Shown here in pieces: positions 8,059 through 30,700 of a stretch of 64,000 nt of DNA. Location of the stretch: the sequence record OZ035750.1. One strand, 5' to 3'. The position numbers and the translations under genes are program-made. The stretch comes from Gamaleyavirus NAN33P5. The notes below the pieces were generated by a model, which saw only the letters and a program-made list of their open reading frames with translations, was not told the origin of the DNA and did no database searches. Position 1 is the stretch's first letter; each line of letters starts with the position of its first letter.

Positions 8059-8123
8059 CTTCCTTACTCATACTTAAATCAGTATTATCATTCAGTCAGA
8101 CTCTTCTGATACGTCCCGAATGG

Positions 8124-8486: not shown

Positions 8487-8731
8487 AAAGAAAGATAGGA
8501 CTAGTACCGAATTGGAAGAAGGCCTGGAAGTGGGCATCTGTTCAGATTAGTGCGTTTGGGTTAATTTTGTTTTCTGCTGTAGATATTATCCAACCAATGC
8601 TGACGGGATTGCCTCGTCACATCCTTGAAGATATTCCACATGGTTCCAGCATTACAATCGCACTGTTTGCCCTAAACATTGTAGGCAGACTAATACGATT
8701 CCATCCAAAGGATGATTCTCATGAAAGCTAA
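8471..8731 (+). CDS. putative holin (two transmembrane segments)
   Basis: Internal Met of ORF 8405..8731 ('MVCRL...'); two hydrophobic helices ('ISAFGLILFSAVDII', 'ITIALFALNIVGRLI'), charged C-terminus; stop overlaps endolysin start. Confidence 0.45.
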   Translation: MVCRLKRKIGLVPNWKKAWKWASVQISAFGLILFSAVDIIQPMLTGLPRHILEDIPHGSSITIALFALNIVGRLIRFHPKDDSHES

Positions 8732-9356: not shown

Positions 9357-9837
9357 AGGTTGGCCTTATCTTCTGGTGGTGGTCCTTGGGGCCACCATTT
9401 ACTTTTGGGGTAATTCCAATGGACAGTCTACTGTTCAAAAGAAGTGGGATGCCCAAAAGGTTGAAGACCTGAAGGCAACGCAAAAACTACAGGACAAATA
9501 CAATGCTCTCCAAAGAAACCATAGTTATGAAGTCGGGCTACTCACTTCCCGGTTGCAGACGGCTGAGAGTAATTACGCAAGCGAGCTTGCTCGCGTTAGC
9601 AGTGATTACGACAGCCGGATGCAACAGTCTGAAAGACGAGCATCGGTATATAAACGTCAAGCCGAAGCCGGAACCCTTGAGTGCAGAAGTCTTGCAAGCC
9701 ATGCAGCCAGACTCGACAACAGTCTTGAAGAAGGCAGACGTTTGGTTGAAGAACTCCGGGCAACTGTTAGACTCCGTGACAACCAACTAATTGAGTTGGG
9801 TAAGCAAATTCAGGCTGACCGTAAACTTTTTGAATAG
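9316..9837 (+). CDS. i-spanin (Rz-like)
   Basis: 173 aa; N-terminal TM ('[17 protein letters not shown]') then coiled-coil-like charged periplasmic domain; immediately after endolysin. Confidence 0.6.
9527..9790 (+). CDS. o-spanin (Rz1-like lipoprotein) embedded in +1 frame of Rz
   Basis: Signal peptide with lipobox 'ITTAGC', short Pro-rich mature peptide; entirely nested in the Rz gene. Confidence 0.55.
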   Translation: MKSGYSLPGCRRLRVITQASLLALAVITTAGCNSLKDEHRYINVKPKPEPLSAEVLQAMQPDSTTVLKKADVWLKNSGQLLDSVTTN

Positions 9838-9845
9838 GATTAACT

Positions 9846-12116
9846 ATGGAACACCAAGACACTTTTAAGCCTTTACCAGACCCGGCTCAATCAGAGAAAC
9901 TAACGGACTGGAAGAAGGAACCAAGTATCCAATTACTGAAGGGTGATTTGGAATCAGCTAAACCTGCTCACGAAGCAATCATGGCACAGATTCGTGAGTG
10001 GAATGACCTGATGGAAGTCAAGGGTAAAGCTAAACCTCCAAAGGTTAAAGGACGTTCTCAAGTCCAACCTAGACTGGTTCGCCGTCAGGCAGAGTGGCGA
10101 TATGCTCCATTGTCTGAGCCGTTCCTCTCATCTAATAAACTCTTTAAAGTAACCCCGGTTACTTTTGAAGATGAGTTAGCTGCAAGACAGAATGAGTTAG
10201 TTCTTAACTACCAATTTCGTACCCAGCTTAATAAAGTGAAGCTGGTAGATGATTACGTACACAGTGTCGTAGATGACGGTACTGGTATTGCTCGTATTGG
10301 CTGGGAACGTAAGACCGTTAAAATTAAAACAGAAACACCGGTCTTCCAGTTGTATCCAATTGAGAACCAGGAACAGGCAGATGTTCTTCAACAGGCTTTA
10401 CAGCTTCAGGCAGAGAATCCTCGTGAGTATGATGAAACAATGCCGGAAGATATTAAGGAAGCTGTTAACTACTTCAATGAAACTGGAGAAGCTACTTATG
10501 CAATCCAGACTGGGATTACTGAAGTAGAAGTAGAGAAGGCACTGGTTAACAGACCTACCGTTGAAATGCTTAACCCCAATAACGTGGTTATTGACCCTAG
10601 TTGTAATGGTGATTTGGATAAGGCTCTGTATGCAGTTATCTCATTTGAGACATGCAAAGCAGACCTCATGAAGAACAAGGACCGTTATCACAATTTAGAT
10701 AAGATTGACTGGGAAAGTTCTAGCCCTATGACTGACCCAGACCATGAAAGTAAAACTCCAAGCGACTTCCAGTTTAAGGATGCACTTCGTAAGAAAGTTG
10801 TTGCCTATGAGTACTGGGGATTCTACGACATCAATGATGATGGCTCTCTGGAACCAATTGTTGCTACCTGGATTGGTTCTACCCTTATTCGTATGGAGAA
10901 GAACCCATTCCCGGATGGTAAGTTACCTTTAGTAGTTGTTCCTTACATGCCCCGTAAACGCGAACTCTTTGGTGAAGCTGATGCTGAACTATTAGGTGAT
11001 AACCAAGCAATCCTTGGTGCAACTATGCGTGGGATGATTGACCTGTTAGGTCGAAGTGCAAATGGTCAACGTGGTTACCCTAAAGGGATGCTGGATACAC
11101 TGAACCGTCGTCGATATGACGATGGACAAGATTATGAATACAACCCAATGCAGGGTAATCCTAGTCAGGCCATTATGGAACATAAGTTCCCTGAGTTACC
11201 TCAGTCGGCAATAGTAATGACCCAGATGCAAAACCAGGAAGCAGAATCCCTAACTGGTGTTAAAGCATTCTCTGGTGGTGTAACTGGTTCAGCTTACGGA
11301 GATGTGGCTGCTGGTATTCGTGGTGCACTTGACGCAGCATCTAAACGTGAGATGGCAATCCTTCGTCGATTAGCTAAGGGTATGGCAGATATTGGTACTA
11401 AGATTTGTGCAATGAATGCCGTGTTCTTATCGGAGAAAGAAGTAGTACGTATTACTAACGAGCAGTATGTAGAGATTAACCGTGAAGACCTTAAAGGTAA
11501 CTTCGATATTGAGGTTGATATTAATACTGCTGAAATTGATAACCAGAAGTCTCAGGACTTGAGCTTCATGGTTCAAACACTGGGTAATACGGTTGACCAG
11601 ACTATTACGTTATCTCTTGTAGCTAAGATTGCAGAACTTAAACGTATGCCTGACCTGGCTCATGAGTTACGTACTTGGCAACCACAGCCAGACCCTATGG
11701 AAGAACAGCTTAAGCAATTGGCAATTCAGAAAGCACAGCTTGAGAATGAAGAGCTGCAAAGTAAGATTGCACTCAATATGGCTAAGGCTAAAGAGGCAGC
11801 TTCTGCTGGTGACCTTAAAGACCTGGATTATCTGGAACAGGAATCTGGTACTAAACATGCTCGTGATATGGAAAAACAAAAAGCACAATCTCAAGGAAAC
11901 CAGAACCTTCAAATAACTAAGGCATTGACAACACCTATTAAAGAAGGTGAAACTACCCCCAACATATCTGCTGCTGTTGGATATAATACATTGACTGACG
12001 GGAACTCTATACCAGAACGTGATTTAGCTGCTCAGCAAGACCCGGCTTATTCACTCAGTTCCCAATACTATGACCCTAGCCAAGACCCAGCATCGGCTCT
12101 TGGCATGAACCTGTAA
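9846..12116 (+). CDS. portal protein
   Basis: 756 aa; size and position (between lysis genes and scaffold/capsid) match N4 gp59-like portal; acidic C-terminus. Confidence 0.65.
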
Positions 12117-12129
12117 GGCAGACCTTCAC

Positions 12130-12474
12130 ATGAGTAAAGAATCAACAATCGCTGGACTGGAACATCGACTGGAAGCTGCTAAAGGTGCAGTTGCACATGC
12201 AGAAGATGTACGTAAACTTCTGGAGAATCCACTGTTCCGTAAAGTAATTCTTCGCCAGTTCTGTGTGGAAGATTGCGCACGTTACGTGCAAGAGTCTGGT
12301 GACCCACTGCTTGAAGCTAATAACCGTGCAGATGCATTGAACATGGCTCAAGCTGCTGGTCACTTACGTCGTTGGCTCGACCTCGCTATTCGTATGGGTG
12401 AAAACGAAGCTGACGTTATTCTACAGGTAGAAGAAGAACTCGACGCAGTTCGTGCTGAACCTGAAGACGAATAA
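12130..12474 (+). CDS. hypothetical head-module protein
   Basis: 114-aa ORF between portal and scaffold-like gene. Confidence 0.35.
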   Translation: MSKESTIAGLEHRLEAAKGAVAHAEDVRKLLENPLFRKVILRQFCVEDCARYVQESGDPLLEANNRADALNMAQAAGHLRRWLDLAIRMGENEADVILQVEEELDAVRAEPEDE

Positions 12475-12493
12475 TTAACCGGAGATATTTCCT

Positions 12494-13714
12494 ATGACTA
12501 CGGAAGCTGCAACCACAGCTTCCGACATTCTCGCAATGTCGGATGATGAGATTCTGAATATGGAAGCCCCAGCAGTTATCGCTGAGGAAGAAACTTCCAC
12601 TCAGAACAACCCTGAAACCAACGGCGTACAGACTCCTGAAGAAGAAGTTTACACCCCTGCTGTTGAAGACCTACCAACCGAAGAAACCTCCCCCGAAGCC
12701 GAACCAGATGAAGAAGATTCAGCAAATACTTTAACTTCTGATAAAGTTGATGATAAAGTTGTTGACACAGAAGTTGATAGTAACGGTGAGCCGATTACTA
12801 AAGCTGAACCTTCTACTACTGAACCAGGCCAGGAACAGAAAGAAGAAGGCAAACAGTCTGAAGGTCTGCCTGCTGACTTCAACTATAAGGAAGGTTACGA
12901 GAAGTTGATGGCTCCTTTTAAAGCTAACGGCAAAATGATTACTCCCCGTTCACCGGAGGAGGCCATTAGCCTGATGCAGATGGGTGCTAACTATACTCGT
13001 AAGATGCAAGAACTACAGCCTTACCGTAAGGTAATGTTGATGTTACAGAACAACGGTTTGATGGATGAGGATAAACTTTCTTTCCTGATTGATCTGGATA
13101 AAAAGAATCCTGAAGCCATTAAGAAGTTGCTCAAAGACTCTGGTACAGACCCTCTGGACTTTAACCCAGATGAGGAAATTAACTACCAGGGTGGCAATCA
13201 CCGTGTTACCGACACCGAAGCAGATTTTGCAACCGAAATTGACGACTTAAAGTCTACTCAAGAAGGACAAGCTACATTAGGTGTTATTAGTTCGACATGG
13301 GATGCTGTCAGTAAAGATGCTCTTTACCAGAATCGTGGGCTACTCCAGACTATTCACGAACAACGTGAGAATGGTATTTATGACACCATTGCAAACGAAG
13401 TGAATCGTCTTCAGATGTTAGGCCAGATTCCGGTTGGTACTCCGTTCATTCAGGCTTATAACCACGTCGGTAACCTCCTTTCACAGCAAGGGGCATTTAA
13501 CCGAGTGGCTAAGCCTGAACCGGTACAAGCAGTTAAACCAGTGGTTCAGCCGGTAGTGCGTGTAGCACAACCTAAGCAGACCCTGGCTAACAGTGAGCAA
13601 GCTAAAGCAGCTTCCCTTAGTCGGGCTGCTACACGTAAAGCAACACCTATTGTAAACCCACTCGCTATGAGTGATGAAGATTTCGCTAAACTCCCAGTAC
13701 CGGGTAGTCTTTAA
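12494..13714 (+). CDS. putative scaffolding protein
   Basis: 406 aa, highly acidic Glu/Pro/Thr-rich N-terminal region, immediately upstream of major capsid gene. Confidence 0.4.
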   Translation: MTTEAATTASDILAMSDDEILNMEAPAVIAEEETSTQNNPETNGVQTPEEEVYTPAVEDLPTEETSPEAEPDEEDSANTLTSDKVDDKVVDTEVDSNGEPITKAEPSTTEPGQEQKEEGKQSEGLPADFNYKEGYEKLMAPFKANGKMITPRSPEEAISLMQMGANYTRKMQELQPYRKVMLMLQNNGLMDEDKLSFLIDLDKKNPEAIKKLLKDSGTDPLDFNPDEEINYQGGNHRVTDTEADFATEIDDLKSTQEGQATLGVISSTWDAVSKDALYQNRGLLQTIHEQRENGIYDTIANEVNRLQMLGQIPVGTPFIQAYNHVGNLLSQQGAFNRVAKPEPVQAVKPVVQPVVRVAQPKQTLANSEQAKAASLSRAATRKATPIVNPLAMSDEDFAKLPVPGSL

Positions 13715-13730
13715 ACAGGAATAAGATGAT

Positions 13731-14933
13731 ATGTTAAACTATAACGCTCCAGTTGACGGTCAGAAATCTAGCATTGATGGTGCTGGTTCCGACCAGATGA
13801 ATACCTTTTACTGGCTGAAGAAAGCTATTATTCAGTCCCGCAAAGATCAGTACTTCATGCCACTGGCTAACACCATCAACATGCCGAAGAACTACGGTAA
13901 GACTGTTAAGGTGTATGAGTACGTTCCACTGCTTGATGATAAGAACATCAACGACCAGGGTATTGATGCCAACGGTGCTACCATCGTTAATGGTAACCTG
14001 TATGGTTCGTCCAAAGACGTTGGTAACATCACCTCTAAACTGCCTCTGCTGACAGAGAACGGTGGTCGTGTTAACCGTGTAGGCTTTACCCGTATTTCTC
14101 GCGAAGGTTCCATTCATAAGTTCGGTTTCTTCTACGAATTTACCCAAGAGTCTCTGGACTTTGATTCTGATGACCAGCTGAAAGAACACCTGTCCCGTGA
14201 ACTGATGAACGGTGCTGTACAGTTGACTGAAGCTGTTCTCCAGAAAGACCTGTTGGCTGCTGCTGGTACTGTACTGTATGCAGGTGCTGCTACCTCTGAT
14301 GCTACCATCACTGGTGAAGGTTCTACCCCGTCCGTAGTTTCTTATAAGAACCTGATGCGTCTTGACCAGATTCTTACTGAGAACCGTACTCCGACTCAGA
14401 CTACTATCATCACTGGTTCTAAACTTACTGATACCAAAGTACTTGGTGGTACTCGTGTAATGTACGTTGGTTCTGAACTGGTTCCTGAACTGAAAGCGAT
14501 GAAAGACCTGTTCGGTAACAAAGCATTCATTGAGGTTCAGCACTATGCTGATGCTGGTACTCTGATGAATGGTGAAGTTGGTTGTATCGACAAGTTCCGT
14601 ATTATCCAGGTTCCAGAGATGCTGCATTGGGCAGGTGCTGGTGCTCAAGTCTATTCTAACCCGGGTTACCGTTCTTCTATGGTTAGTGGTCAAGAACACT
14701 ACGACGTATTCCCGATGCTGGTAGTTGGTGATGACTCCTTCTCTACCATTGGCTTCCAGACTGATGGTAAGTCTGTTAAGTTCTCCATCATGACTAAGAT
14801 GCCTGGTCGAGAAACTGCTGACCGTAATGACCCGTATGGCGAGACTGGTTTCAGTTCCATCAAGTGGTACTACGGTATTCTGGTTAAACGCCCAGAACGT
14901 CTGGCTCTGATTAAGACTGTTGCTCCTCTGTAA
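13731..14933 (+). CDS. major capsid protein
   Basis: 400 aa; position after scaffold; strong hairpin directly downstream; size equals N4 gp56-like MCP. Confidence 0.75.
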
Positions 14934-14949
14934 TAGTCCTAAATAAAGT

Positions 14950-14975
14950 AAGGGGGACTTATGTCCCCCTCTTAA
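14950..14975 (+). terminator. hairpin/terminator after capsid gene
   Basis: gggggac-ttat-gtccccc stem-loop followed by weak T-tract. Confidence 0.5.
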
Positions 14976-15000
14976 CAAAACAAAATGAACCACAGGAAAT

Positions 15001-15642
15001 ATGAACATGAGCATTAACGATAAACCGACCACTGACGTAGAACTGGACGTACAGGGCAACGAAGATACCGTTAACGATATTGCAATGCCTAGCGAACTTG
15101 ATGTTCTTAAGCAACGTGCAACGTTGATGAATATTAAGTTCTCTAACAACATCTCCGTTGAGAAGCTCCGTGAGAAGATTGAAGCTGCACAAGCAAAAGA
15201 CGAACCAGAAGTAAAAGAATCTACTGTTAACCCTTTGGGTGAAAAACAAGAGGCAGGTGTTAAGAAAATGACTCTGGGTCAGAAGATTCGTGCAGAACAG
15301 ACTCGACTGATTCGTGTACGTATCCAGAACCTTGACCCTAAGAAGAAAGATCTGCCGGGTGAAATTATCACCGTAGCTAACGAATATATGGGTACTGTAC
15401 GTAAGTTTGTTCCATTCGGTGAAGTAACCGACAACGGTTATCATATTCCGTATTGTATTTATGAGTTCCTTAAAGAACGTAAGTTTGTCAATATTACGAC
15501 TCGCAAAGGTAAGAATGGCTTACCGGATATCCGTGCAACAGAAGCACGTGAGTTCTCCATTGAAGTATTGCCACCACTGACTGAAGCAGAATTGGCTCAA
15601 CTGGCTCAAGCACAGATTGCTGCTGGTAGCCTGAACGATTAA
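15001..15642 (+). CDS. virion protein (unknown function)
   Basis: 213-aa ORF in structural operon. Confidence 0.4.
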   Translation: MNMSINDKPTTDVELDVQGNEDTVNDIAMPSELDVLKQRATLMNIKFSNNISVEKLREKIEAAQAKDEPEVKESTVNPLGEKQEAGVKKMTLGQKIRAEQTRLIRVRIQNLDPKKKDLPGEIITVANEYMGTVRKFVPFGEVTDNGYHIPYCIYEFLKERKFVNITTRKGKNGLPDIRATEAREFSIEVLPPLTEAELAQLAQAQIAAGSLND

Positions 15643-15661
15643 CGTATAAGCTACAGTTCAA

Positions 15662-15700
15662 CACGGCTCACTGGGGTAACTCCGTGGGCCGTTTCTTTTT
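15662..15700 (+). terminator. putative intrinsic terminator
   Basis: acggctcac / gtgggccgt imperfect stem followed by ttcttttt. Confidence 0.45.
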
Positions 15701-15712
15701 GAACCAAGAGGA

Positions 15713-16555
15713 ATGATTATGTCTTGTTCTGCTGAGGTAGAAGCTAACCGACTCCTAGATGAGTTAACTAAGGGTGATGACTTTACCCTTCCTAATGTTG
15801 ATATGTCTGGTCCTGAATGGGATATCCCTGGTGGAGATAGCTCCCCAATCTTTGGTGCTATTACTAAAATAACAAACGAATCGCTTACTACCCGTGAAGT
15901 AGGTGGTAGTGGTACGTTTGATGCATTAATGGAATCTGCACACAATCACCTTAAAGCTGAGTATAAAGCTAACCGTATTACTGGTGGTGAATATACCAAG
16001 GCGTACATTGCTACGATGGAAGCCTGCATGAATAATGCTGTTCAGTTCTTACTTGGTCGTGACCAAGCATACTGGGCTGCTGCTATGGCACAGATTCAGG
16101 CAGTTACTGCACGTGTTGGTTTGGCAACGGCTAAAGCACAGTTTGTACTTGCTAAGGCACAAGCACTGTCTACTAAATCTGAGTATGCCTTAACTAAGCT
16201 GAAACTCTCTAATGAGGGCCAGAATTACTGTGCTGCAAAGTTCAATGTGGATGAGATTCTTCCTGCACAGGAACGCTTATTACAAGAACAATACGAAGTA
16301 CAGCGTGCACAAACCATGGAAACCCGTTCTGACTCTTTACCAATCAAAGGTAGTATTGGTAAGCAGAAGGAGCTGTATGACCAACAGATTACTTCTTATC
16401 AACGTGATGCAGAAGTTAAAGCATCCAAACTATTTACCGATGCGTGGATTACACAGAAGACTATTGATGAGGGCTTGAATCCTCCTAATGGTTTCACTAA
16501 CGCAAGTATTGATACCATTCTGTCCAAGCTGAAGTCTAACAACGGGCTGAACTAA
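15713..16555 (+). CDS. virion protein (unknown function)
   Basis: 280-aa ORF; stop overlaps next gene start. Confidence 0.4.
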
Positions 16556-16556
16556 T

Positions 16557-19211
16557 ATGGGCTTATTCAGTGGGAAGACCAAAGTATACGTAGCATCCTC
16601 TGTCTATAACATGGCAGGGGATATACATAAGCGTCCAAACTATATGAAGACTGTGGTTATTGGTAATATTGTTTTTAATACAGGATTCACTATGGCAGAC
16701 ACTATCTCCGATAGTTATCTGAACGGACCTGGTATTCGTATGCGACTGTTCTCCAGCTGGAGTAAGAACCACTATGATTCAGAAGTTGGTATGGCAGGTT
16801 CTTCATTGGGTGTACTGGCTAAGATTGACCCTACTGTTATAGAGGGTCAAATTACCCCACCTGCTGGAGAATCAGTCTATGTTCAGGCAGCAGAGATTGG
16901 CTTTGCTGACTTTGAGCAATGGTGTGACCAGTATCTTTATGAGAATGCCCCAAGTCGTATCATGGAACGATTCGACGTAGACATTGATGAAGATACTAAT
17001 GAAATTACTATGACTTCCCTGGATGGAGGTTCTACCATTACATTCACACCTACTAATTTTGAACCAGGTGCTTTGTATCTCTATGCTGATTACACATTCT
17101 ATAAGTCCCCGACTACTAATCCACCTGTAGTAGGACCGACTACTGTCTATGATGGTGAGGATGACTTACCATCTACTTTGTTGTGGACTACCATCTCAAG
17201 CGATACGACAGCTAATACAGCCAATCTTACCAAGACTATACAGACTCATTCTGTTTACTCTGATGGTAGGCCAGATGAAGACAGTACTGTTACTGAACCA
17301 AGTGTAGATAACTGGAACTCTTACGTTAAGGTTTACCGTAGAGGATTTACTGAGAAGCCTGATGATGTAACTGTAGTTGTATCTGACAGGGTAATGACTC
17401 ATACAAAGTTTGGTGAGATTCAATCCAATACTACTGTAACTACCAATGTAGTTGATTTAGGCGGTGGTGTTACTCGCACTGACACAATCACCACAATTAC
17501 AGAGACACTGGTTCGTAAATACTCATCTCAGATTACTCGTACTGATACTGAGATGGCTGCTGTTAGTACACCTAAGCTGCTTATCTATAAGCATAATTCT
17601 GGCAACGCTGTACTTGACTCCCTATTTGAGACTGAAGCTACTGATAACCGATTCTATCCATTCATTCCAATCAGGAATGATAAACAATGGGTAGAGTATG
17701 ACCCAATTTACCCCCACTGTAAGAAGGCACTCTATAAAGCTACTGGTGGTAAGCTTAATAAAGTAATGACGGAGCTTAAGAAGAATAAGGACATAGGTGA
17801 TATTCAGTACATTTATGGCACATTCGGTGTATCCCTTAATACTCCAGAGGATACTGCTAAGGAATATATCTACCGTTTCTTTCAGATGGCTACTGAAGCA
17901 TTCCCACCAGACCCAACTTACCCTACGCTGGAATCGGTAATTGCAGGTTATCAGGCAGCAAATGATGCAGTCGATGCATACGTAAAATGGTGGAACAGGC
18001 AGGAAGGTCTTATTGTTGGAACACCACCCCCCTTGCCGGAATATCCTGTCATACCTAAGCGAGAGTTTAGGGTGCATAGTAGTAAGCATTATAAGTATGA
18101 CATGACCATCCGTTGGAATTATGTATCTGAAACTACACATTCTGGTAAAGCATGGGCAGGTGCTAAACAAGGACAACTTCGAGCCAGGTATGCAGGGGAT
18201 ATAACTCTTACACGCAAGAACATACGTACAGCTAGTAACTCTGGTTCAACCAAAAGATTGGAAGTTATCCCTACGTTTTACTCTATGCAGGAATATGAGT
18301 TGCTTTGGCAAGATGGTAGTAACACCTATCGTAAACTTAGGGTACTTGGTCTACATCACAGCAACAGGGTGTATAAAAACAAGTCAGTAAACATTGATGT
18401 TGCTGAAGCAATGGGTGATGCAGAAGAGAGTGGATTCATTATCCCACTGCACACTAACATCTACCGTTCAATGTCACTGACTCGTAGTACTCAGCTGTCT
18501 ACTGCTTGTTCCTACTTAGTAATGAACTCATATAAGAAGGTTAAGAAGAAGTGGTATCAAACTTCTGCCTTTAAGATTGTGGTTGTTGTAGTTGCTGTCG
18601 TTGTATCTGTATTCACTATGGGTGCTGGTGGTGTAGGTATACTTGGGGCTTATGGTGCAGTTGGTGCATCACTCGGTTTTGTTGGATTAGCTGCTGCAAT
18701 AGTAGGTGCTGTAGCAAACGCCATTGCTGCAATGATTATGATATCTATTGTCACTAAAGTATCTACTTCACTGTTTGGTGATAAGCTAGGTTTTATCATC
18801 GCTGCTGTTGCTTCAATGGTAGCTATGAATGTTGGTACTGCTCTATCTACTGGTACATCCTTATCTACCTTAGCCAGCGAAATGATGAATGCCCAAAACA
18901 TCATGCAGCTCACCAGTTCAGTAGGTAACGGTATTAGCCAGTATATTAATGCATCTACGGCTGCTACTATTCAGAAAGCAGAGAGTGTAATGCAGAAGTA
19001 CAATACCGATATGATGGCAATCAATAAGCAGTATGAAGAAATGTTTGGTACTGCTGGACAGGGTGTAATTGACCCTATGCAATTCGTGTCAATGGAGTCG
19101 ATGGATTCTTTCCTCTCACGTACTCTTATGACTGGTTCAGATATAGCTGATATGTCTCTAAACATGATTGGCAGCTACACTGATATGACTCTTAATACTG
19201 ACCTTGTTTAA
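16557..19211 (+). CDS. large virion/ejection protein with C-terminal Gly/Ala-rich membrane-like region
   Basis: 884 aa; about 120-aa hydrophobic G/A/V-rich stretch ('VVVVVAVVVSVFTMGAGGVGILGAYGAVGASLGFVGLAAAIVGAV...') near C-terminus. Confidence 0.45.
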   Translation: MGLFSGKTKVYVASSVYNMAGDIHKRPNYMKTVVIGNIVFNTGFTMADTISDSYLNGPGIRMRLFSSWSKNHYDSEVGMAGSSLGVLAKIDPTVIEGQITPPAGESVYVQAAEIGFADFEQWCDQYLYENAPSRIMERFDVDIDEDTNEITMTSLDGGSTITFTPTNFEPGALYLYADYTFYKSPTTNPPVVGPTTVYDGEDDLPSTLLWTTISSDTTANTANLTKTIQTHSVYSDGRPDEDSTVTEPSVDNWNSYVKVYRRGFTEKPDDVTVVVSDRVMTHTKFGEIQSNTTVTTNVVDLGGGVTRTDTITTITETLVRKYSSQITRTDTEMAAVSTPKLLIYKHNSGNAVLDSLFETEATDNRFYPFIPIRNDKQWVEYDPIYPHCKKALYKATGGKLNKVMTELKKNKDIGDIQYIYGTFGVSLNTPEDTAKEYIYRFFQMATEAFPPDPTYPTLESVIAGYQAANDAVDAYVKWWNRQEGLIVGTPPPLPEYPVIPKREFRVHSSKHYKYDMTIRWNYVSETTHSGKAWAGAKQGQLRARYAGDITLTRKNIRTASNSGSTKRLEVIPTFYSMQEYELLWQDGSNTYRKLRVLGLHHSNRVYKNKSVNIDVAEAMGDAEESGFIIPLHTNIYRSMSLTRSTQLSTACSYLVMNSYKKVKKKWYQTSAFKIVVVVVAVVVSVFTMGAGGVGILGAYGAVGASLGFVGLAAAIVGAVANAIAAMIMISIVTKVSTSLFGDKLGFIIAAVASMVAMNVGTALSTGTSLSTLASEMMNAQNIMQLTSSVGNGISQYINASTAATIQKAESVMQKYNTDMMAINKQYEEMFGTAGQGVIDPMQFVSMESMDSFLSRTLMTGSDIADMSLNMIGSYTDMTLNTDLV

Positions 19212-19668
19212 CAGGAGAATCCTTATGGATTTGTCATTCTTAACAGGCAACCAAGCCCCTCAGCCAGGAGCTATGTCTTGGATGCCTAATAACAATCAGA
19301 ACTTTAATACCCCAGCTATGAACTATATCCCCGGTGCAACTATTGGTATGAATGCAGGTATAGGAGTAGCCTCCCCTACTTCTTTCTTGTCTGGTTCAGC
19401 TAATCAGTTGGGTATGAACGTACCTACCTTCCAGCTAGGGCTTGGTGCACTTGGTTCCTTAGCTGGTATCTATAGTGGTTTTCAGGCCAACAAGTTAGCC
19501 AAAGACCAGTTGAACTTCACTAAGAGTGTTACTAACACTAACCTGAATAACCAGATTAAGTCTTATAACACTGCACTGGAAGACCGTGCTCGCAGTCGTG
19601 CTACAGCAGAGAATCGTGACCAGTCTTCGGCTGATGCTTACATTGCAGCTAATAAACTAACTCGTTAA
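19204..19668 (+). CDS. virion protein (unknown function)
   Basis: 154-aa ORF overlapping the previous stop. Confidence 0.4.
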   Translation: MFNRRILMDLSFLTGNQAPQPGAMSWMPNNNQNFNTPAMNYIPGATIGMNAGIGVASPTSFLSGSANQLGMNVPTFQLGLGALGSLAGIYSGFQANKLAKDQLNFTKSVTNTNLNNQIKSYNTALEDRARSRATAENRDQSSADAYIAANKLTR

Positions 19669-19680
19669 TAGGAAACCATC

Positions 19681-21645
19681 ATGGCTCAGATAACGTGGAG
19701 AAATGTTGATGCACCTAACTTCTCTGGAGTTGGTGACAGCATTCGCACATTTGGCAGCATGATTGGTAACGCCACCTCCGGCTTAAGTGATGCACTGGGT
19801 AATTTCCAGAACGCTGCCAAGCAGGAGGCTGGCAATGCCGTCATGATGAATGCTATGCAGTATCAGGACCCGAATGAATACCGTAATGCTTTGGCATCCG
19901 GTGCTCTGTTTCAGGGGGTTGACCCTTCACTGGTAAACCAGCGTACTCTTCAGAATCTGGATGAGCGAGCAGGTACATTACTGACTCAACAAGGACAGCA
20001 GGGAACCAATGACTACATTGCATATCGCTTTGGACGTTTACAGGATACTAACACTGCATTAGATAATGCTTCCCCTGCTATTCGTTTACTGTCTGAGGCT
20101 TATCAGTCGGGTGACCAGAATCGTATTAATGCTGCATTAAGTCAGACCCGTGATGCATTGTCTGCACTCCCTGCTGACCAACAACTGGAGATGATGGGTA
20201 GTCTTCAAGGTCAGGGCAGTCAGGCTATTAATCAGGCACAGAACCGTTTTGATTTGGGTGTGGCTCAACGTAATGATGCTGATAGTCAGGCAGCTATGGG
20301 TGTAATGTCACAGATTACCCGTGGTGCTGAGAACCCAAATGATGCCCGTCTGTTGGCAGAAGCATATAGTAAGAACCTGTCCCCAGTTGCACAGGCACGT
20401 TTGCAGGGATTACTGGCTAATGCTTACCCAGGTGTTTACGGTAATGGTGTAGGTGCTGCATCTGCTCCGGGTACTGCTGGTACACGGCAGGGTTCGCCTT
20501 ATGATGTTACTTACCAGTTTGCTGGTACATCTACTCCTATTACTCAAATGAGTATTGGTGATGTAATTAAACACCAGGATGGTATGAAATCGAACCAGGG
20601 TGCTTCACCTGTTGGTGCATTCCAGATTAACCAAGCTACTCTGAAAGACTTCGCTCCCAAAGTTCTTGGTTCAGATTGGCAAAGCCAGCCTCTTTCTCCT
20701 GAGAACCAGGATAAGATTGGTAAGGCTATCTTTGAGTCTCGTAAGAATGGTAACCTTAAAGATACCTGGGCTGCTCTGCCTAACTCTACCCCAGGTGCTT
20801 ATAAGGATATGACATGGGAAGAGGTTAAACCTGTTATTGCCCAAGCTGAAGTAGGGGCTGACCCACTTGCTATGGTTCAGAATAATCAGGGCAATCAGGC
20901 AGTATCTACTCTGGCTCAGGGTATGATTGGTACACGTTCTATGCAGGATAACACCGGTAGTCTTAATACTGACTTCCTCGGTACTGTCACTGATAATACC
21001 CCAGTGGGTGATATTGCTAACCGTCTGTTGGAGGGTGATTTTAAAGGTGCTGACCGTAACTGGGTACTGAACCGGCTGAACGATATTTCTCAGCGTGGAA
21101 ATATGTCACCAGCTATGGCTGCTGCTGTTATGCAACGTGCACAGACTGGAGTACCTGAGGGTTATATTGGTCGTGCTATTGATGCAGTTAACCCATTCAT
21201 TACCAATGAAGCCGGTAATGGTATGCGTCTTAATGACCGTCAGGTAGAACAGTTAATTGAAGGTGTAAAACGGGGGGAGCCACTGGAAGGTAGTGTTCGT
21301 AACCTAGGTCGTGCTCAGGCTATGCAGAACATTCAGGCAGCACAGACTGCATATGATGCTGCCGTAGCTGCACTGGCAAATACCCAGAATAAGATTAACA
21401 CCGGACAAAGTGGTCTTACTGCACTGTTACCTGCACGTCAGGAGGCTGTTACTAAAGCTGCTGCAATGCTCCAAGCTGCACAGGCACAAGTACAGGCTGA
21501 CCCAGCTAACCTGGCTCCAAGGGGTTTCCAGTCACAGGCTAGTGTAGATAGAGCACGAGCTAAGGAAGATGAAGAACGTGCTGCACGGTACTTACGTCAG
21601 GCACAAGGACTGCCTGAGTATATGCAACCAAGGCAAAATCGGTAA
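19681..21645 (+). CDS. virion protein, possible muralytic (transglycosylase-like) ejection protein
   Basis: 654 aa; segment 'GASPVGAFQINQATL' weakly resembles SLT 'GLMQ' region; followed by strong terminator. Confidence 0.4.
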   Translation: MAQITWRNVDAPNFSGVGDSIRTFGSMIGNATSGLSDALGNFQNAAKQEAGNAVMMNAMQYQDPNEYRNALASGALFQGVDPSLVNQRTLQNLDERAGTLLTQQGQQGTNDYIAYRFGRLQDTNTALDNASPAIRLLSEAYQSGDQNRINAALSQTRDALSALPADQQLEMMGSLQGQGSQAINQAQNRFDLGVAQRNDADSQAAMGVMSQITRGAENPNDARLLAEAYSKNLSPVAQARLQGLLANAYPGVYGNGVGAASAPGTAGTRQGSPYDVTYQFAGTSTPITQMSIGDVIKHQDGMKSNQGASPVGAFQINQATLKDFAPKVLGSDWQSQPLSPENQDKIGKAIFESRKNGNLKDTWAALPNSTPGAYKDMTWEEVKPVIAQAEVGADPLAMVQNNQGNQAVSTLAQGMIGTRSMQDNTGSLNTDFLGTVTDNTPVGDIANRLLEGDFKGADRNWVLNRLNDISQRGNMSPAMAAAVMQRAQTGVPEGYIGRAIDAVNPFITNEAGNGMRLNDRQVEQLIEGVKRGEPLEGSVRNLGRAQAMQNIQAAQTAYDAAVAALANTQNKINTGQSGLTALLPARQEAVTKAAAMLQAAQAQVQADPANLAPRGFQSQASVDRARAKEDEERAARYLRQAQGLPEYMQPRQNR

Positions 21646-21721: not shown

Positions 21722-24700
21722 TTGAACAGGAAACATGCTATGTCAACATTTGACCGTCTGGCAGGTTTCGCAGACAGCATCACTAATGCTAAGCAAGTCG
21801 ATGTCTCTACTGCAACCTCTCAGAAGCAAGCTGCACAAGGGCAAAGCCCTTTCCAATTAACCCCAGAGAATGCTTACAATCTCCAGACTGGACGAGTAGG
21901 TAATCTTGGAATCGGTGCATTCGAACCAGGTTCACTTCAGGCAGATTTCACTCAAGCCTCTCCATTAGAAATTATTAATAAATACGGTAATGAGCAAGGT
22001 CTACAAATTCTTAATAGCCGAGCTAATGCTGCGGATGTTGTACGTCAGGACTTATCTAAACAACGTACTAACGCAGAAGCATTTGGCGATACTCTTTCTG
22101 GTGTTGGTCTTGGTGTTGCTAATACCCTTGGGGGCATTGCTGCTCTTGGCACAGGTCTGGTCAATGATAATGCCGGGGCATCCATTTCTTCCGGGATGGA
22201 TTGGCTGAATGAAGGTGTACACAATTTACAATCTGATGCACTGAATGCTACCCGTAAAGTTGTTCAGAATCAGAACCAGATTTCTGCTCAAAAGAACCAG
22301 AAACTCTATGAGCAAGACATCAAAAATGGGGAGAGCGATTTGGTTGCCTCCCTGTCTCGTATTGGACGTGATGCTTTCGATTCTGTTGCTAATACACTTG
22401 ATAATGGCATGGCTGCTTCAGATGGACTGAGTGAAGGTGTTGGTTCCCTCTTTACTGGTGGTCCACTTATCCGTGGTGTATCTGCACTCGGTAAAGTAAT
22501 GGTAGGTGGTGATAAAGCTGTTAAGGGTATTACCTTAGCTGCTGGGTTAGGTTCACGTCCTGCACAGGTTGCATTGTCTGCTGGTCGTGTTGCTGCACCT
22601 GCTATTGCAATTGGTGGCATGGAAGCTGGTGGTGCATACCAACAGACTGCTTCTGAAATCATGAAGATGTCCCAGCAAGAATTGGCAAGTAAGTCTCCTG
22701 TTTACCAACAACATATTGCTGATGGCTTATCTCCTGATGAAGCACGTCGTCAGACTGCATCTGAAACAGGTATCATTGCTGCTGGCTTAACTGCTCCAGT
22801 TGCTGCTGCTACCGGTCCACTGGTATCCAAGTTTGAACTTAATCCACTTAAGGTAGGCTCACTTGCAGGTGCTGGTTCTAATATGCTGCGTGAAACAGTT
22901 GAAGAAGGTATTCAGTCAGGCTTTGGTCAGTATGCCCAGAACCGTGCAATCAAGGAAAATGTTGATGCATTCCGTGACACTCTCAAAGGGGTCGGTGAGC
23001 AAGCAGGTCTTGGTGCACTTTATGGCTTCGGTAGTGCTGGGGTTGCTCAAGCTCCTGGTGCAACTGTTAAAGCAGTTGGTGCTTCTGCTGGTCCTGCTCT
23101 TCGTACTACTCTGGCTGGTGCTTCTCTGGTTGGTAAAACATTAGCAAAAGCTGCGTCCCCTCTTACTAACATCCTGGTTCAACGTGGTGAAGAAGTTGCT
23201 AAGCGTAATGAACAAGCATCTCCTGTAGCTGATGCTACGGTTAACGCTGCTGCACAGGAAGCTGCTGCTCAAGCAGAGCAGGCACAAGCAACTGTACAGG
23301 AAGCAGTAGATGCAATGGATATCACTCCAGAGGAGAAAGCTGCTGCTACCCAGTATGCTGCTGATTTAACTCAGGCAATGAAGTTTGACCCAGTAGAATT
23401 GGAGCAAGCTAACCCTGCAATCCGTGAAGCTGTTTCTGGTTCCACTAACCGTGTAGAAGCTATTCAGAAGATGGCTGACCTGGTTAATACTGCCGAAGAC
23501 CCTAACGTTCAAATGGAAGCTGCAATCCAGATGTATGACAATATCATGTCTATGGATAGCTTCATTAACCGTGACCCAGGTGCTCTGGCTAATCTGGAAC
23601 AGGGTTCCCCTGCTGCTGCAATCGTAGACCAGTTCTCTGGCCTGATGGCTAACGTGCAGAATACCCCTAAAGTACTCCGTGCATTCCGTGCTATCCATTC
23701 TATGATTCAGGAACAGGCTGAAGCAGGTAAACTGAAAGCCACTGAAGAAGCTAGCCAAGCCCAAGCAAACAACATTGCTATGGCTGCTGATGTATCTCCA
23801 GAAGTACTGGATGCAGATTCAGTAAACATGGTTCTGAAACATGCAAGTGAAGGTAAGATTACACTTGGGAATCGTCAACGTGCTGCCCTGCAATCTGCTG
23901 CTGCCTTGTTACAGGGTGCACGTGAGTTCGACGCTAAAGCAGAAGAACTGGGCTTACGTCCTCAAGACATTGTTAGTAAACAGATTAAAACCGATGAGTC
24001 TCGTTCTAACGAAGGACAGTACTCTGCGTTGCAACATGCGAAACGCATTCGTTCTGCGTATAACTCTGGTAACTTCGATTTGGCCTCCGCTTATCTGAGC
24101 GACTTTATGAAGTTCGCCCAGCACATGCAGAATAAGGTCGGAGCATTGAATGAGCATCTGATTTCTGGGAATGCGGATAAGAATAAGTCTGTTCATTATC
24201 AGGCTCTCTCGCCTTCCCGTGAATGGGTACGTAGTCGTACTGGCCTTGGTGTTAACCCTTACGATACCAAGTCTGTTAAGTTTGCCCAGCAAGTAGCACT
24301 GGAAGCTAAGACCGTAGCTGATATTGCTAATGCACTTGCTACGGCTTACCCGGAGCTTAGTGTTTCTCATGTGAAAGTTACCTCGTTAGATTCACGTCTG
24401 AACAAACCTGCTGCCCAGGTAGTTAAAGAGTTCCGTCAAGGTGGTCTTGATGCCACTCAGTCTCAACAGACTAATGAACCAGTGAATCAGGTTGATGAAT
24501 CTCCTGCACCAGTGCAAGAGGTCACTACTACTGTACAGCCTAAAGCTAAACCAGTGGTAGAAAATAAGACTGCTCCTATTAAGGAGACTAGTCCAAAAGC
24601 AGAAGAAGTCTCTACTACTAAGACTGAAACAGTAGATGTTACCCTCACTAATGAGGGTAACATCCAGGAAGTAGCTGTAACCAAAACAGAAATGGAAACA

Positions 24701-27700
24701 GTGTTCCCTGTCTATAACAATGAAAAGACACCGAACCAGTTCCTGAAATCGTTTTCCCTGCCGGAAGAACCTAAGTCCCGTACCATTGGTTCTGAATCTC
24801 CTTTGGCTGATATTAAGCAAGCACTGTCTTCTGCTGCTCGCTTTGAAGCATTCACTCAAAAAGAAAATAACGCTCTCACTAGTGATGTGATGAAACGTTA
24901 TCAGGACTTGATGGACTTTGGGGAAACTCTGAAGACTACTCTGTCTGAACGTCTGGCTAAGTTCCTTGCTAACAAAAATGTTGGTAAACGTTTTGCAGAA
25001 GGTACTGAGGCTAATCGTTGGGTAGGTGGCAAACTGCTGAATATCGTTGAACGAGATGGTGATACCTTTAAGTTCAACGACCAGTTGTTAGAGACTGCTG
25101 TACTTGCTGGTCTGCAATGGCGACTGACTGCTACACAGAATGCTGCCATTAAAGATATGAAAGATGTAGCTGCTATTACTGGCGTAGAAGCATCTCTGTT
25201 ACCAGAAGGTATTCTGGCTGAGTTTGAGAATGCCCAGACTCTGGTAGAAGCTACTAACTCACTGGCTCAGAAGATTGAATCCTACTGGGGTTTGAATCGC
25301 AATCCTAATGCACCACTGGGTTATACGAAAGGTATCCCAATGGCAATGGCTACAGAGATTCTGTCTTCCCTCATTGAGATGGGTGAAGTTAAAGAGTCTA
25401 TGCTGGATGTGTCTGAGATTGACCCGAACTCCAATAAGACTGTTGGTCTGTATACTATTGAGAAGCTGGATGACAATGATGCCATTAATAAATTCCCTAC
25501 TGCTATTGAGGAAGCTGTCCTATTAGAACCAGAAGAGAAAATGTACTTTGGTGATGACATTCCTTCCGTGGCCCAGACTCAGTTACGTAATCCTGCTGTT
25601 AAAAATACCCCTGAGCAGAAAGCTGCTCTGAAAGCTGAACAGGCTACTGAGTTCCGTGTACATATGCCGATGGTTAACTTCTATGAAGCATTAGGCCGTG
25701 ACAACATTCTGGAACTGATGGGTGCTGGTACTCTTAATCCTGACTTACTGAATGAGAACACTGCTAAATCTCTGGAAGGTAAAAACCTGTCCGTGTCTAT
25801 GGCATATGATTCTCTGTTCGGTGTAATTAATCAGATACGGGAACAAGAGAATGGATTGGATACGCCTATCCATTACGGTTACAACATGACCCGTGTAGGT
25901 CGTATGCAGATGCTTGGTAAGAACAACCCACAATCCAGTAAGCTGGTTCGTGAAGCAATTCTGCCGACCTTCTCTACTATCGACTTAAGTAATGAAAACA
26001 GCCAAGCGTACTCTGACTTCCAGCTAGGACTGGCTCAGGCATTGGGCATCAAGGTACATAACATGTCCCGTGAGGCTATGTCTGAAAAGCTGACCAAGGC
26101 TCTGGAAGGCAATCTGAAGCCAGCTGTTGATATGATGGTTGAGTTCGATAAGTCTGGTCACTTACCTGCCGATGCAGTAGATATTCTGAAGACCTCTCTG
26201 GGTGGTGACAAATCCTTTGTAGCTCTCATGGCTCTGATGGAATATGCCCGTTACCTGAACAGTGATGACCGTGCCAACTTTAATACCCCACTGTACGTTG
26301 AAGCTGATGGTGTAACCAACGGCCCAATCAATGCAATGGTATTAATGACTGGTGGTAAATTCACTCCAGACTGGATTAAGAATACTGCCAAAGGTGGTTT
26401 GTTCTTCGGCAAAGCTGGTAAGACTATGAACGAACATCGTTCACAGGATGATAGTGTTGACCTGTATGAAGCATCTACTAATGGTTTGCAACAAGCACTA
26501 AATGAGTTACGTACTACTTACCGTAACAACGTTCCTGTTATGAGCCAGATGAATCATCTCCAGAAGTTAATGGACCTGTTCATTAAAGACTTTAACCTGA
26601 ATGAAGACGGTACTCTGGACCTGAAACGTGGTATCGCTAAAAACCCACTGACCATTACCATCTATGGTTCTGGTGCTCGTGGTATTGCTGGCAAGATGGT
26701 TAGTGCAATTACTGACACCATCTACGAACGCCTCAGTGACGTTTTGCAAGCACGTGCTGCTGACCCTAGCATTTCCCCAGCTATGGCAATGTTTGGTAAG
26801 GAGGCTGCGTCTGAGGCTGATGCTCAGGCTATGCTGGATACTTTCCTTACTTCTATGGAAGCACTGACTGGTAATGTTCCAGTTATGCGTAAGGGTGAGT
26901 TATCTATTCAACAAGTAGAGGGTGCACTGACTGGTAAGTTAAACCCTCAGAAATTTACAGTATCCGGTAATGCCCTGAAGAATTTACAGGAGAACATGCT
27001 CCACCTGTTCGTTGAACCAATGCGTACTGGTATCCGTAATACTGTTGGTGAAGGTCTGATGCACTCTACTGAGAACTTGCAGAAGGCTACCCAGATTCAG
27101 TCTCTGGTATTGCAGGATATGTTCCAGCAAGCAGTACAGGCTAAACTAGCAGAAAAAGAAAAAGACTCAACCTGGAAGAAGGGTGATTTCTTAACGCAGA
27201 AAGAACTGAATGAAATCCAGGAATCATTATCCCCGCTGGCTCCAATGATTGAGACTGGCTCACAGACTTTCTACATTGCTGGTAGTGAGAATACTGATGT
27301 TGCTAACCAAGTACTGGCTACCAACTTAGATGACCGTATGCGTGTGCCAATGAGTATCTATGCTCCTTCGCAGGCAGGTGTTGCAGGTATTCCGTTTATG
27401 ACCATTGGTACTGGTGATGGCATGATGATGCAGACCCTTTCTACTATGAAAGGTGCTCCGAAGAATACCCTGAAAATCTTTGATGGTATGAACATTGGTA
27501 TCAATGACATCACTGATGCGAGTCGTAAAGCGAATGAGGCTGTATACACATCCTGGCAGGGGAACCCTATCAAGAATGTTTATGACTCCTACGCTAAGTT
27601 CATGAAGAATGTAGATTTCAGCAAACTGTCTGATGAAACCAAACAGGCTATCGCTAAATCTGCTCTGGAATATGACCAGCGTGAAGGTGCTACCGATGAC

Positions 27701-30700
27701 CTGTTACGTGCGGGTGCTGAACAGATTGAACGTAACCTGCGTAACATTGCCCTGGGTGTAGATATTCGCCACAAAGTAATGGACCAGGTGCAGACCACTG
27801 TTGATCAGATGGCTGCTGTGGGTGCTCCTTATGTGAACAACGGTAAAATCTCTCTTGAAGGTCTTACTGTAGACCAGCAAGTAGCCAAACTGAACGAACT
27901 GTTTGATGCTGAATTAAACAAGCGTCGTGATGCAGTACGTGCTGCTAAAGCAGAACCAGTGAAAGAAGTACCGGCAATGGAACAGGTTGGTCGTGTTCTT
28001 AAGTCTGGTGTACGTCTGCTGTCCAATACTGCTATTGCTAAGCTGGCTAAAGAGATGTCTCCTGAACAGCAAGCAGTATTGAAAGAAGTACAGAAATCCC
28101 TTGCTGCCAAAGACTATAAGGTTGTTTACGGTACTCCTGCTCAACTGGATGCTTACGCTATTGAGAAGAACATTACTCGCCCAGCACCAGAAGATATTGA
28201 AGCTGCCGAAGCTGGTAATGCATACGGCTGGACTAACTTTGATGATAAGACCATCTACTTGGTTACCCCTTCCTTAGAGACTCTGGTTCATGAATTAGTA
28301 CATGCTTCTACTTTTGAATCTGTACTGGCTCATTATGAGGGTACTCCTAACGAAGCAGTCCAGAATATTGAAGACCTGATGAATCAGTTCCGTACTTTGG
28401 ATGTTAAGAACGAATCCACGGTAGTACGTGAAGCATATGCTGATGCTCTCAATACCATTAATGGTCACTTGTCTAATGGCTTTATTGAACCAGCAATGGC
28501 TAAAGCTGCTGCACTGAATGAGTACATGGCATGGGGCTTAACTAACCGTGAGCTGATTAGTAAGCAGAAGAAGACCACTGCACTGAAAGCTATGGTTCAG
28601 TCTGTATATGAAGCAATCAAACGTCTGGTATTCGGTCGTAAGAAAGCTCCTGCTAATGCAGATGATATGTTCTCAGGCTTATTGTTTAACTCATCTGTAG
28701 TTATGCGTGGACAGGCTCCTACGGCTGTTGTATCCAAGGACACTACCTTGTTCCATAACAAAGCGTATGGTGACAATACCCGTCTGGAAGAGTTAGGACA
28801 GACCTTTGATAAGCTGATTACTAACTACATTGGTTCAGAACCAGTACAGCAAGTAATTCGTAAAGGTAAGTTTTCTGATGCAGTAGTGAATGCAACTAAA
28901 GTAACCCGCGATGTTCAGGCTCATGGCTTCACTATGAATATGCAGGAACAGCGTCTGTTCACTAATATCGTTGCTGCTTTGGCTACTGAAGCTGCTATTA
29001 GTCCTGCTGCTCTTTCTCGTGCACAGGAATATTATGCACACGTTACCAAGAACCTGACTGTTGAAGCATTCATGGCTGACCCAGATAGTACTGACCCTGC
29101 TGACCGTTACTATGCTCAGCAGAAGTTTGATACCATCATGGGTGCTAACAATATTGAGTTTGATGCACAGGGACGTTCTTCCTTACTGCCTACCTTTGTT
29201 GGTCTGGCAATGGTAAGCGAAGAAGTACGTAATGTACTGGCTAACATTCCTGTTATGAAAGCAGATAAGAAATCTGGTAATACCGTTGATGCAATGCTGA
29301 CTAACATTGGTACTGCTGCAATGTCCAGCCTGAATGCTCGTGTAGCAGGTGATACCAAAGCTACCAACGTGCAGGACGGTATGGATGCACTGGCTCAGAC
29401 AATCATGCAGACTAGCCTTAATGCACAGTCATTCTATGATTCCGTTGCTACTCCTAGTGGTAATGCTATTGACCGTGCTAACCAGTATCTGGTGGATTCT
29501 ATCGATGCACTGTCTACTCGTGCTTTAGAAAGTGCTCGTGAAGTTGCAGCCAATACCAAGAACCCGTTGGTCAAAGGTGCTGCTCATGCTGCACAACTGG
29601 TAGCTGCCATTGCTACAGAGAAGAACGGTGCAATCGTGGCAGAAGGTGTTATGGCTGCAATGAACCAGGGTAAAGTATGGCCACCCTTCCATGACTTAGT
29701 TAATGACTTAACCGGTCGTACTAAGAGCAATGCTTCTGTATACGATTTGATTAAAGCAGTTCGTGCACAGGTACAAGCAGACCGACAGCAATTCCGTGAA
29801 CGCCTGCCTACCACTATTGCATCTAAGTTCAGCCGTAAGCTGACTAATGATGAGTGGAAAGCAATGCACACTGGTATGGGTAAAACTGATTTAGCTGTCC
29901 TGCGTGACACCATGTCTCTGGCTGAAATCCGTGACCTGCTGTCTGACCAGAAGATTGTTGACCGTGAAGTGAATAAGCTGGAAGCAGATTTGCAGAAGCA
30001 AGCTGGTCGTAACTGGCCTCTTATTAGTCGTAAATCTAAGCAACTGGCTCAGTACATGATTAACGGTACAGTCGGTAATAACCTGCTGCGTAATGCTACT
30101 GCAATCTCCCGTATGCTGGGTGAACGACAGGCTGCTCGTTCTACTGTAGATGTAGCTCAGCTGGATAAACTGATTACCCTGTATGCACTGGAAGCAATGA
30201 ATAAGACTGATCGTGAGATGTTATCTTCACTGGCTCAGACAGAAGTTGATGGAATGGACTTTGCTACTTCTTATCTGGTTGGTCAGCGTAAAGATGAAAT
30301 GGCTAAAGCCAAGTCTGACCCACGTGCAACTCTGAACCAGTACAAAGGGCATATCCCTAGTGAGACTAAACAGGGTGTTAATCTGATTGTTGCTGAAGAT
30401 AGCCAGTTTGCTGATTTAATTGAGAAGTCTTATGTACGTCTTGGTACTTATCAAGGTAGCTCTGCCAACCGTGGTCCAGCACGTAGCTATTACTTTGCTC
30501 CAGTACAGGCACAGGCTCCCTTCTCACAGGGTATCCTACAGAACGTTCGTGATACTGCTGGTGGTGTAGACCTCGGCACAGGATTTACGATGGGTTCAAT
30601 GGTAGCTGGTCGTATTACTGACAAGCCTTCCGTAGACCGTATTACTAAAGCACTGGCTCGTGGTGAACGTGGCAATGAACCATTGCTGCCTGTATATGAC

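Follow-up and report, generated by a model that had tools for sequence, protein, structure and literature searches.

A conserved lambda-lysozyme-like domain inside the tunnel protein gp51 of an N4-like phage ejection cassette

The new finding of this analysis is a conserved domain resembling lambda lysozyme in the middle of the tunnel protein gp51, encoded within positions 16557-21645 of a 64,000-nucleotide window of Gamaleyavirus NAN33P5 (OZ035750.1). This 5.1-kb stretch showed 91-97% nucleotide identity to G7C-like N4-type coliphages (Gamaleyavirus, Schitoviridae), and the genes it carries, homologues of N4 gp53, gp52 and gp51, are already characterized in N4 by solved structures and a published mechanism. 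For the best explanation as a whole, in which the region represents the conserved tail-gating and ejection cassette of N4-like podophages, we put the probability at roughly 0.7. Within this explanation, homology of the gp51 domain to the lambda lysozyme fold is very likely, and a muralytic activity of the domain, predicted from sequence and models, has about an even chance of being real.

The 654-amino-acid (aa) protein matched PDB entry 11mn ("66 kDa protein", N4 gp51 residues 1-359; E=2.8e-130) and PHROG 6126 (E=0). By analogy with its N4 and T7 counterparts, it is assigned as gp51, the channel-forming ejection protein of the periplasmic tunnel and analogue of T7 gp15. In N4, gp51 surrounds the portal and, once ejected, assembles into a periplasmic tunnel of ten subunits whose leg fold resembles that of T7 gp15 (PMC13434306). 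The gene and its parts are listed below by window position; pLDDT (predicted local distance difference test) values refer to AlphaFold2 models.

19681-21645, + strand: ejection protein, gp51 homologue, 654 aa (PDB 11mn, PHROG 6126)
19789-20424, + strand: N-terminal long-helix "leg", aa 37-248 (AlphaFold2 helices)
20425-20493, + strand: Gly-rich flexible linker, aa 249-271, YPGVYGNGVGAASAPGTAGTRQG (pLDDT <50 at aa 255-263)
20494-20856, + strand: lambda-lysozyme-like (lytic-transglycosylase-like) globular domain, aa 272-392
20614-20643, + strand: GAFQINQATL, the G-x-x-Q hairpin motif, aa 312-321, aligning with lambda "GAGRYQLLSRW" and the "GLMQ" region of SLT
20848-20850, + strand: codon of Glu390, candidate catalytic acid, at the C-terminus of the domain's final helix (aa 379-391)

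In the full-length AlphaFold2 model (pLDDT 83), the lysozyme-like domain lies between the low-confidence Gly-rich linker and the C-terminal helical half of the protein. Modelled from a 61-sequence alignment, the domain itself was compact, with a pLDDT of 92.9 and a predicted template modelling score (pTM) of 0.86. The full-length model also contains a second small alpha/beta domain downstream of it (aa 429-531, 20965-21273; pLDDT ~93-96). Searches of Pfam, PHROGs and NCBIfam named no enzymatic domain in gp51. A match of aa 508-627 to the NCBIfam model RipA (E=7.5e-5, 21.9 bits compared to a cut-off of 625 bits) was set aside because it probably reflects coiled-coil composition; the region is predicted to form long helices, and the matched RipA segment is presumably a coiled coil.

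Sequence diversity was obtained from an exhaustive HMMER search with gp51 aa 255-430, which returned 436 proteins at E<=1e-3; among the matches listed, most are 550-800 aa long and hold the domain at an about constant position. A search with full-length gp51 gave identities of 68-97% among the 120 matches listed. Residues 268-392 are the best conserved part of gp51 (mean top-residue frequency 0.58 vs. 0.36). Across the domain sequences, G312, Q343 and E390 were invariant (151/151) and Q315 was kept in all except one (150/151). In a set of 57 full-length homologues spanning 19-86% identity, only G312, Q315, T320, Q343 and E390 were invariant besides Met1, and three of these five residues (G312, Q315 and T320) fall in GAFQINQATL, the segment in which the earlier note, made from the sequence alone, had recognized a likeness to lytic transglycosylase active-site regions. 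This likeness is borne out, as the segment sits within a lysozyme-fold domain related to the lambda lytic transglycosylase.

Based on tblastn, the gp51 domain is encoded in 137 phage records, and all of the matches listed are N4-like genomes of ~68-76 kb or partial records of them; the hosts are Escherichia, Klebsiella, Shigella, Achromobacter, Erwinia, Stenotrophomonas, Xanthomonas, Burkholderia and some Pseudomonas. When ten homologues that stood out by their length or by where the domain lies were analysed with Pfam, the single match was to a C-terminal staphylococcal-nuclease (SNase) domain. The match belongs to the metagenomic protein P0254 (872 aa), an unusual fusion in which a gp51-type domain (aa 471-558) is combined with the C-terminal nuclease domain (PF00565, E=2e-20).

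The relationship to lambda lysozyme was assessed with hhalign. Aligned to the lambda R sequence alone, the gp51 domain profile reached P=7e-4 to 1.3e-5. For a family profile, we assembled 14 sequences from annotated phage records, including lambda R, P2 K, endolysins (45-67% identity) and two virion or multidomain proteins, a lytic transglycosylase family that we take to be CAZy GH104. Compared to this profile, the domain scored a probability of 96.9% (P=1.4e-10, 89 columns), pairing gp51 residues 271-373 with lambda residues 30-134. The motifs Y-D-V..G, G-x-x-Y/F-Q, P-x-x-Q-D and W-x-S/A-L-P..G.Y of the lambda family stand in register in gp51, where the cleft is represented by YD, GxxQ, (E/S)NQD and W..LP...GAY. 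The predicted fold is of the lysozyme type and closest to lambda lysozyme. The lambda endolysin R and P2 gpK (PDB 1AM7) share these motifs with gp51 at an identity of only ~21%. Lambda R is a free lysis enzyme, whereas the gp51 domain is embedded in a 654-aa ejected virion protein; in addition, the beta lobe of the gp51 domain is interrupted by an extra 15-residue helix (aa 292-306), and the N-terminal helix that bears Glu19 in lambda is lacking.

Weaker database signals were in line with this placement. Sub-threshold Pfam matches among 61 family members recurred for two families only, SLT (7/61) and Transglycosylas (9/61), both of the lysozyme clan. The SLT match of the gp51 domain covers only model positions 34-91, after the catalytic motif, and the domain belongs with the lambda-type lytic transglycosylases rather than with the SLT family. 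At E<1e-3, the structural neighbours in BFVD that do not belong to the gp51 family were a phiM12 baseplate hub, a gp5/Vgr OB-fold protein of Atu_ph07 and an M15B peptidase protein, names which point to cell-wall-attacking virion proteins. One gp51 homologue is labelled "lysozyme containing protein" in GenBank (MT682708). We found no published description of a lysozyme domain in N4 gp51, with most subscription papers lying outside the search.

Lambda-type enzymes use a single catalytic glutamate, Glu19 of the motif "S-E-G", which ends the first helix; it was invariant in our 14-sequence lambda-family alignment. The corresponding N-terminal catalytic helix is missing from the gp51 domain, and there is no conserved glutamate between residues 286 and 311 in 151 homologues. 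An SLT-type glutamate around aa 300 and E/D294 were both rejected as the catalytic residue, as neither is conserved. Supply of a catalytic helix in trans by E217 or E227 was rejected as well, since N4 residues 52-255 are resolved as the leg fold. The invariant Glu390 lies at the end of helix 379-391, the last of the domain, and Ser/Val-Gly comes next. Catalytic glutamates of lysozyme-fold enzymes are usually arranged in this way. The position of this candidate on the last helix of the domain suggests a circular permutation.

We therefore moved the helix (residues 376-392) ahead of residue 267 and compared the hhalign scores against the lambda-family profile with those of 40 shuffled-helix controls. 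The scores were as follows.

Permuted, helix first: local 71.2, global 69.2
Native order: local 65.2, global 61.8
Core only, without the helix: local 63.9, global 64.6
Shuffled helix at the N-terminus: local 66.4±2.2, global 61.8±3.2
Shuffled helix at the C-terminus: global 61.4±2.3

In the permuted order, the local alignment extends through lambda helix 1 and pairs Glu390 with Glu19. None of the 40 shuffled helices matched the real permuted score in the local comparison and 1/40 did so in the global one. Set against the lambda C-terminal helix in native order, the helix scored like a shuffled one (61.8), and E148, the lambda partner of E390 in that order, is variable within the lambda family. 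The signal appeared only with the lambda-family profile and shuffled controls; the same comparison with the single lambda sequence was uninformative. Most likely, though with modest support from these alignments, the Glu390 helix replaces the missing catalytic helix via circular permutation. Engineered permutants of T4 lysozyme with helix A at the C-terminus fold and are active.

The gp51 gene is embedded in a cassette with the order gp54 tube, gp53 plug, gp52, gp51 and gp50 virion RNA polymerase, all on the + strand. The open reading frame (ORF) list confirms 16557-19211 (884 aa), 19681-21645 (654 aa) and 21722-32092 (3456 aa). The neighbouring genes are:

8712-9356, + strand: endolysin-like 214-aa protein with GH108 (E=6e-20) and PG_binding_3 (Pfam)
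9846-12116, + strand: portal, upstream in gene order
13731-14933, + strand: major capsid protein, upstream in gene order
15713-16555, + strand: tail tube protein, N4 gp54 homologue, 280 aa (PDB and PHROG 2050 matches)
16557-19211, + strand: tail plug, N4 gp53 homologue, 884 aa (PDB 9yft, PHROG 2220)
19225-19668, + strand: ejection protein, gp52 homologue, 147 aa (PDB 9yf4, 8vxq)
21722-32092, + strand: virion RNA polymerase, N4 gp50 homologue, 3456 aa (ORF list; SP5M homologue annotated "virion RNA polymerase")

The 280-aa protein matched PDB 9d80_C ("Tail protein", E=2e-137) and N4 Gp54 (9lc0/9yf4, E=2e-120) and is, by analogy with N4, the tube plugged by gp53. At a threshold of E<=0.1, Pfam assigned no family to the gp51, gp52 or gp53 homologues.

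Between the two proteins flagged by the earlier note lies a small gene that it had overlooked. Its mechanical ORF spans 19204-19668 on the + strand, beginning with TTG at 19204. The start is most likely the ATG at 19225, giving 147 aa, because the SP5M annotation and the N4 protein start there and an AGGAG lies 8 nt upstream. The product matched PDB 9yf4 ("16.5 kDa protein", E=1.7e-41) with small indels relative to N4, and the homology covers the amphipathic C-terminal helix; it also matched the "N4 gp52-like protein" of phage DEV (8vxq, E=8e-5). By analogy, this protein is the gp52 homologue, the former of the outer-membrane pore and counterpart of T7 gp14. In N4, gp52 is located in the tail lumen and, after ejection, makes an outer-membrane pore like T7 gp14 (PMC13434306). 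The abstract of this N4 paper assigns gp51 to the outer membrane and gp52 to the tunnel, whereas its Results, figure legends and Discussion state the reverse (PMC13434306).

The 884-aa protein aligned over residues 1-883 with the full length of PDB 9yft chain FA ("Gp53"; E=0, 1050 bits) and matched PHROG 2220 (E=0), and its C-terminal part also matched the DEV "N4 gp53-like protein" 9ze4_M. Its gene sits between those of the gp54 tail tube and gp52. Four segments are relevant to its function:

16641-16724, + strand: aa 29-56, first knot strand (gap-free alignment, numbering same as in N4)
18552-18851, + strand: Gly/Ala/Val-rich hydrophobic block, aa 666-765 (hydropathy, composition)
18576-18716, + strand: aa 674-720, first half of the block, equivalent to the N4 670-716 tube cork (alignment offset +4 vs. 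N4)
18852-19208, + strand: C-terminal ~120 aa, polar/amphipathic (N4 equivalent unresolved in the tail lumen)

Both knot segments (aa 29-56 and 674-720) are aligned and conserved compared to N4 gp53. The earlier note had described a hydrophobic region rich in Gly, Ala and Val at 18540-18900, and this region is indeed present: residues 662-782 contain 17% Ala, 17% Val and 12% Gly. Within aa 666-765, 4/100 residues are charged, 18 small-xxx-small motifs occur, and the Kyte-Doolittle means over 19 residues reach 1.6-2.5, with three to four stretches of bilayer-spanning length (>=19 residues). Because the block is conserved in N4 gp53 and the DEV plug protein, it is not a chance feature.

It is improbable, all the same, that this block forms membrane-spanning helices which make or seed the injection channel, the role that the earlier note had envisaged for the 884-aa protein. 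The transmembrane-length segments with their many small-xxx-small motifs would suit such a role, and the block together with the C-terminus is what has been conserved in both the N4 and the DEV plug. Furthermore, the N4 structure leaves roughly half of the block and the last ~160 residues unresolved within the tail lumen, and the N4 authors propose that this part leaves first as a "ripcord" for gp52 (PMC13434306). However, the dodecameric gp54 tube of N4 is sealed at the tail tip by a single copy of gp53, which one gp65 sheath subunit holds in place; in this tail-gating complex, residues 29-56 and 670-716 fold into six short helices, a "hydrophobic knot" that corks the tube (PMC13434306). One copy cannot alone form a wide channel. 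The plug remains on empty particles in vitro, and the proteins shown to have channel activity in planar bilayers are gp52 and gp51 (PMC13434306). The 884-aa protein is, by analogy with N4, the gp53 tail plug and not an ejected channel former. Of the ejection apparatus proposed together with the virion RNA polymerase, the 654-aa gp51 retains its place, and the 884-aa gp53 does not.

With regard to gp51, several results weigh against an active lambda-type domain. A Foldseek search of the domain against PDB returned no lysozyme and nothing below E=0.38, perhaps as a consequence of the inserted helix and the permutation; the HMMER domain profile found N4 gp51 alone among PDB sequences and no lysozyme; and the match to Pfam SLT (PF01464) reached 14.8 bits, below the gathering cut-off of 21.3, with no Pfam match above threshold. 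These results would be expected if the resemblance were spurious and residues 272-392 formed a domain specific to this family, with a structural or oligomerisation role and no relation to muramidases. We consider this very improbable, given that the only recurring weak Pfam matches are two lysozyme-clan families and that the viral structural neighbours are cell-wall-degrading virion proteins. Other points concern catalysis. In the linear alignment, the position of lambda Glu19 is taken by Pro/Ala263 in the Gly-rich linker with no helix before it, so that the chain in linear order has no canonical helix with the catalytic Glu; position 300, corresponding to the SLT "E-S", is variable (N/D/E commonest in 151 homologues); and the permutation score lies only ~2 standard deviations above the shuffles. 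The domain could accordingly be a dead lysozyme-fold module that attaches to peptidoglycan and serves to anchor or position the tunnel at the wall, while host autolysins or another phage enzyme cleave, as the N4 authors suggest. Binding alone could explain the conserved sugar-cleft motifs, and the N4 paper sees no evident hydrolase among the ejection proteins (PMC13434306). A possible alternative enzyme is encoded at 8712-9356: the 214-aa GH108 and PG_binding_3 protein, which by its domains looks like an N4 gp61-type N-acetylmuramidase endolysin, is the only peptidoglycan hydrolase recognized by Pfam among 13 scanned proteins of the structural block (3006-21645). However, an endolysin is a lysis protein and not known in the virion. 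Moreover, Glu390 is one of the five invariant residues and carries the standard catalytic signature at the end of its helix, and this helix is closer to the lambda catalytic helix than shuffled controls. Overall, we regard a dead module as unlikely, though it has more in its favour than a spurious resemblance. For the specific proposal that gp51 is an active, circularly permuted lambda-type transglycosylase, with about ten copies ringing the tunnel and cutting peptidoglycan for the 3456-aa polymerase, we see the odds as evenly balanced.

Combining the N4 work with this proposal, infection would proceed as follows. A single gp53 would seal the 12-mer tail tube, with residues 29-56 and the start of the hydrophobic block forming a knot inside the tube and the remainder of the block, along with the C-terminus, lying in the tail lumen, adjoining gp52. 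Receptor binding would displace the plug, gp52 would exit the lumen to form the outer-membrane pore, and gp51 would come next and build the roughly decameric periplasmic tunnel, so that the virion RNA polymerase and the DNA could travel through pore and tunnel; this order of events is taken from the N4 work. Our addition is that every tunnel subunit would carry its own peptidoglycan-cutting module (gp51 aa 272-392), which would do the job of the N-terminal transglycosylase of T7 gp16.

The closest characterized system is N4 itself, whose gp53, gp52 and gp51 (PDB 9YFT, 9YF4, 11MN; Bellis et al. 2026, PMC13434306) are full-length homologues in the same order beside gp54 and the virion RNA polymerase. 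The hydrophobic knot segments in gp53 and the N-terminal leg region in gp51 are the same, and there is no real difference between the proteins beyond sequence divergence. The difference lies in the description, as the N4 paper reports no lysozyme-like gp51 domain and states that the ejection proteins appear to be without a peptidoglycan hydrolase (PMC13434306). There, the structure of a ΔC-gp51 construct (residues 1-359) was solved, in which only residues 52-255, with the T7 gp15-like leg fold, were ordered (PMC13434306). N4 residue 359 corresponds to residue 357 of the protein encoded in the window, which lies inside the domain. The published construct bisects the domain, and this may be the reason that the domain was disordered and overlooked in the N4 work.

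The T7 ejectosome of gp14, gp15 and gp16 likewise comprises an outer-membrane pore, a periplasmic tunnel and a very large last-ejected protein, along with a travelling module of transglycosylase type (PMC8954989). In T7, this module is SLT-type (Glu37) and located at the N-terminus of the largest protein, gp16, whereas here it is lambda-type and lies inside the gp15 analogue; the largest ejected protein here is an RNA polymerase, unlike T7 gp16. A further related system is Pseudomonas phage DEV with its gp74 plug, gp73 and gp72 (PDB 9ZE4, 8VXQ). The plug has the hydrophobic C-terminal module in common with our gp53 homologue (E=4.8e-11, aa 608-872), and the DEV "N4 gp52-like protein" is matched by the gp52 homologue. 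The DEV ejection chains in PDB gave no match to the gp51-domain profile. In addition, DEV gp72 is reported without bilayer channel formation, and the DEV plug is without a beta-feather domain (PMC13434306).

Lambda-type transglycosylase domains of the canonical, non-permuted form are also found in other phage proteins with several domains. In Aeromonas phage ST4 (OR261032.1, 53437-56358), a 973-aa protein whose gene adjoins a tail gene has a C-terminal lambda-type transglycosylase domain. In Microcystis phage MaMV-DL02, 114R (2905-4098) combines a lambda-type domain with an M23-peptidase-like C-terminal region, which was recognized by eye. Elsewhere in the window, ARAGORN called two adjacent tRNA-like genes between the two transcription blocks (33799-33958, - strand), namely a tRNA-Ile (anticodon AAT) and an odd call with a two-base anticodon. 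A 472-aa ORF antisense to the major capsid gene (13734-15152, - strand) is probably a chance ORF.

If these predictions hold, the gp51 domain would represent a lysozyme-fold enzyme that was circularly permuted in nature, and E390 offers a single-residue target on gp51 for a direct test. Podophages would then place their muralytic module on different ejectosome subunits, on gp16 in T7 and on the gp15 analogue in N4-like phages. The current model of N4 ejection has a gap in that no peptidoglycan-cutting activity has been found in the ejected proteins (PMC13434306); an active gp51 domain would fill this gap of the N4 infection model.

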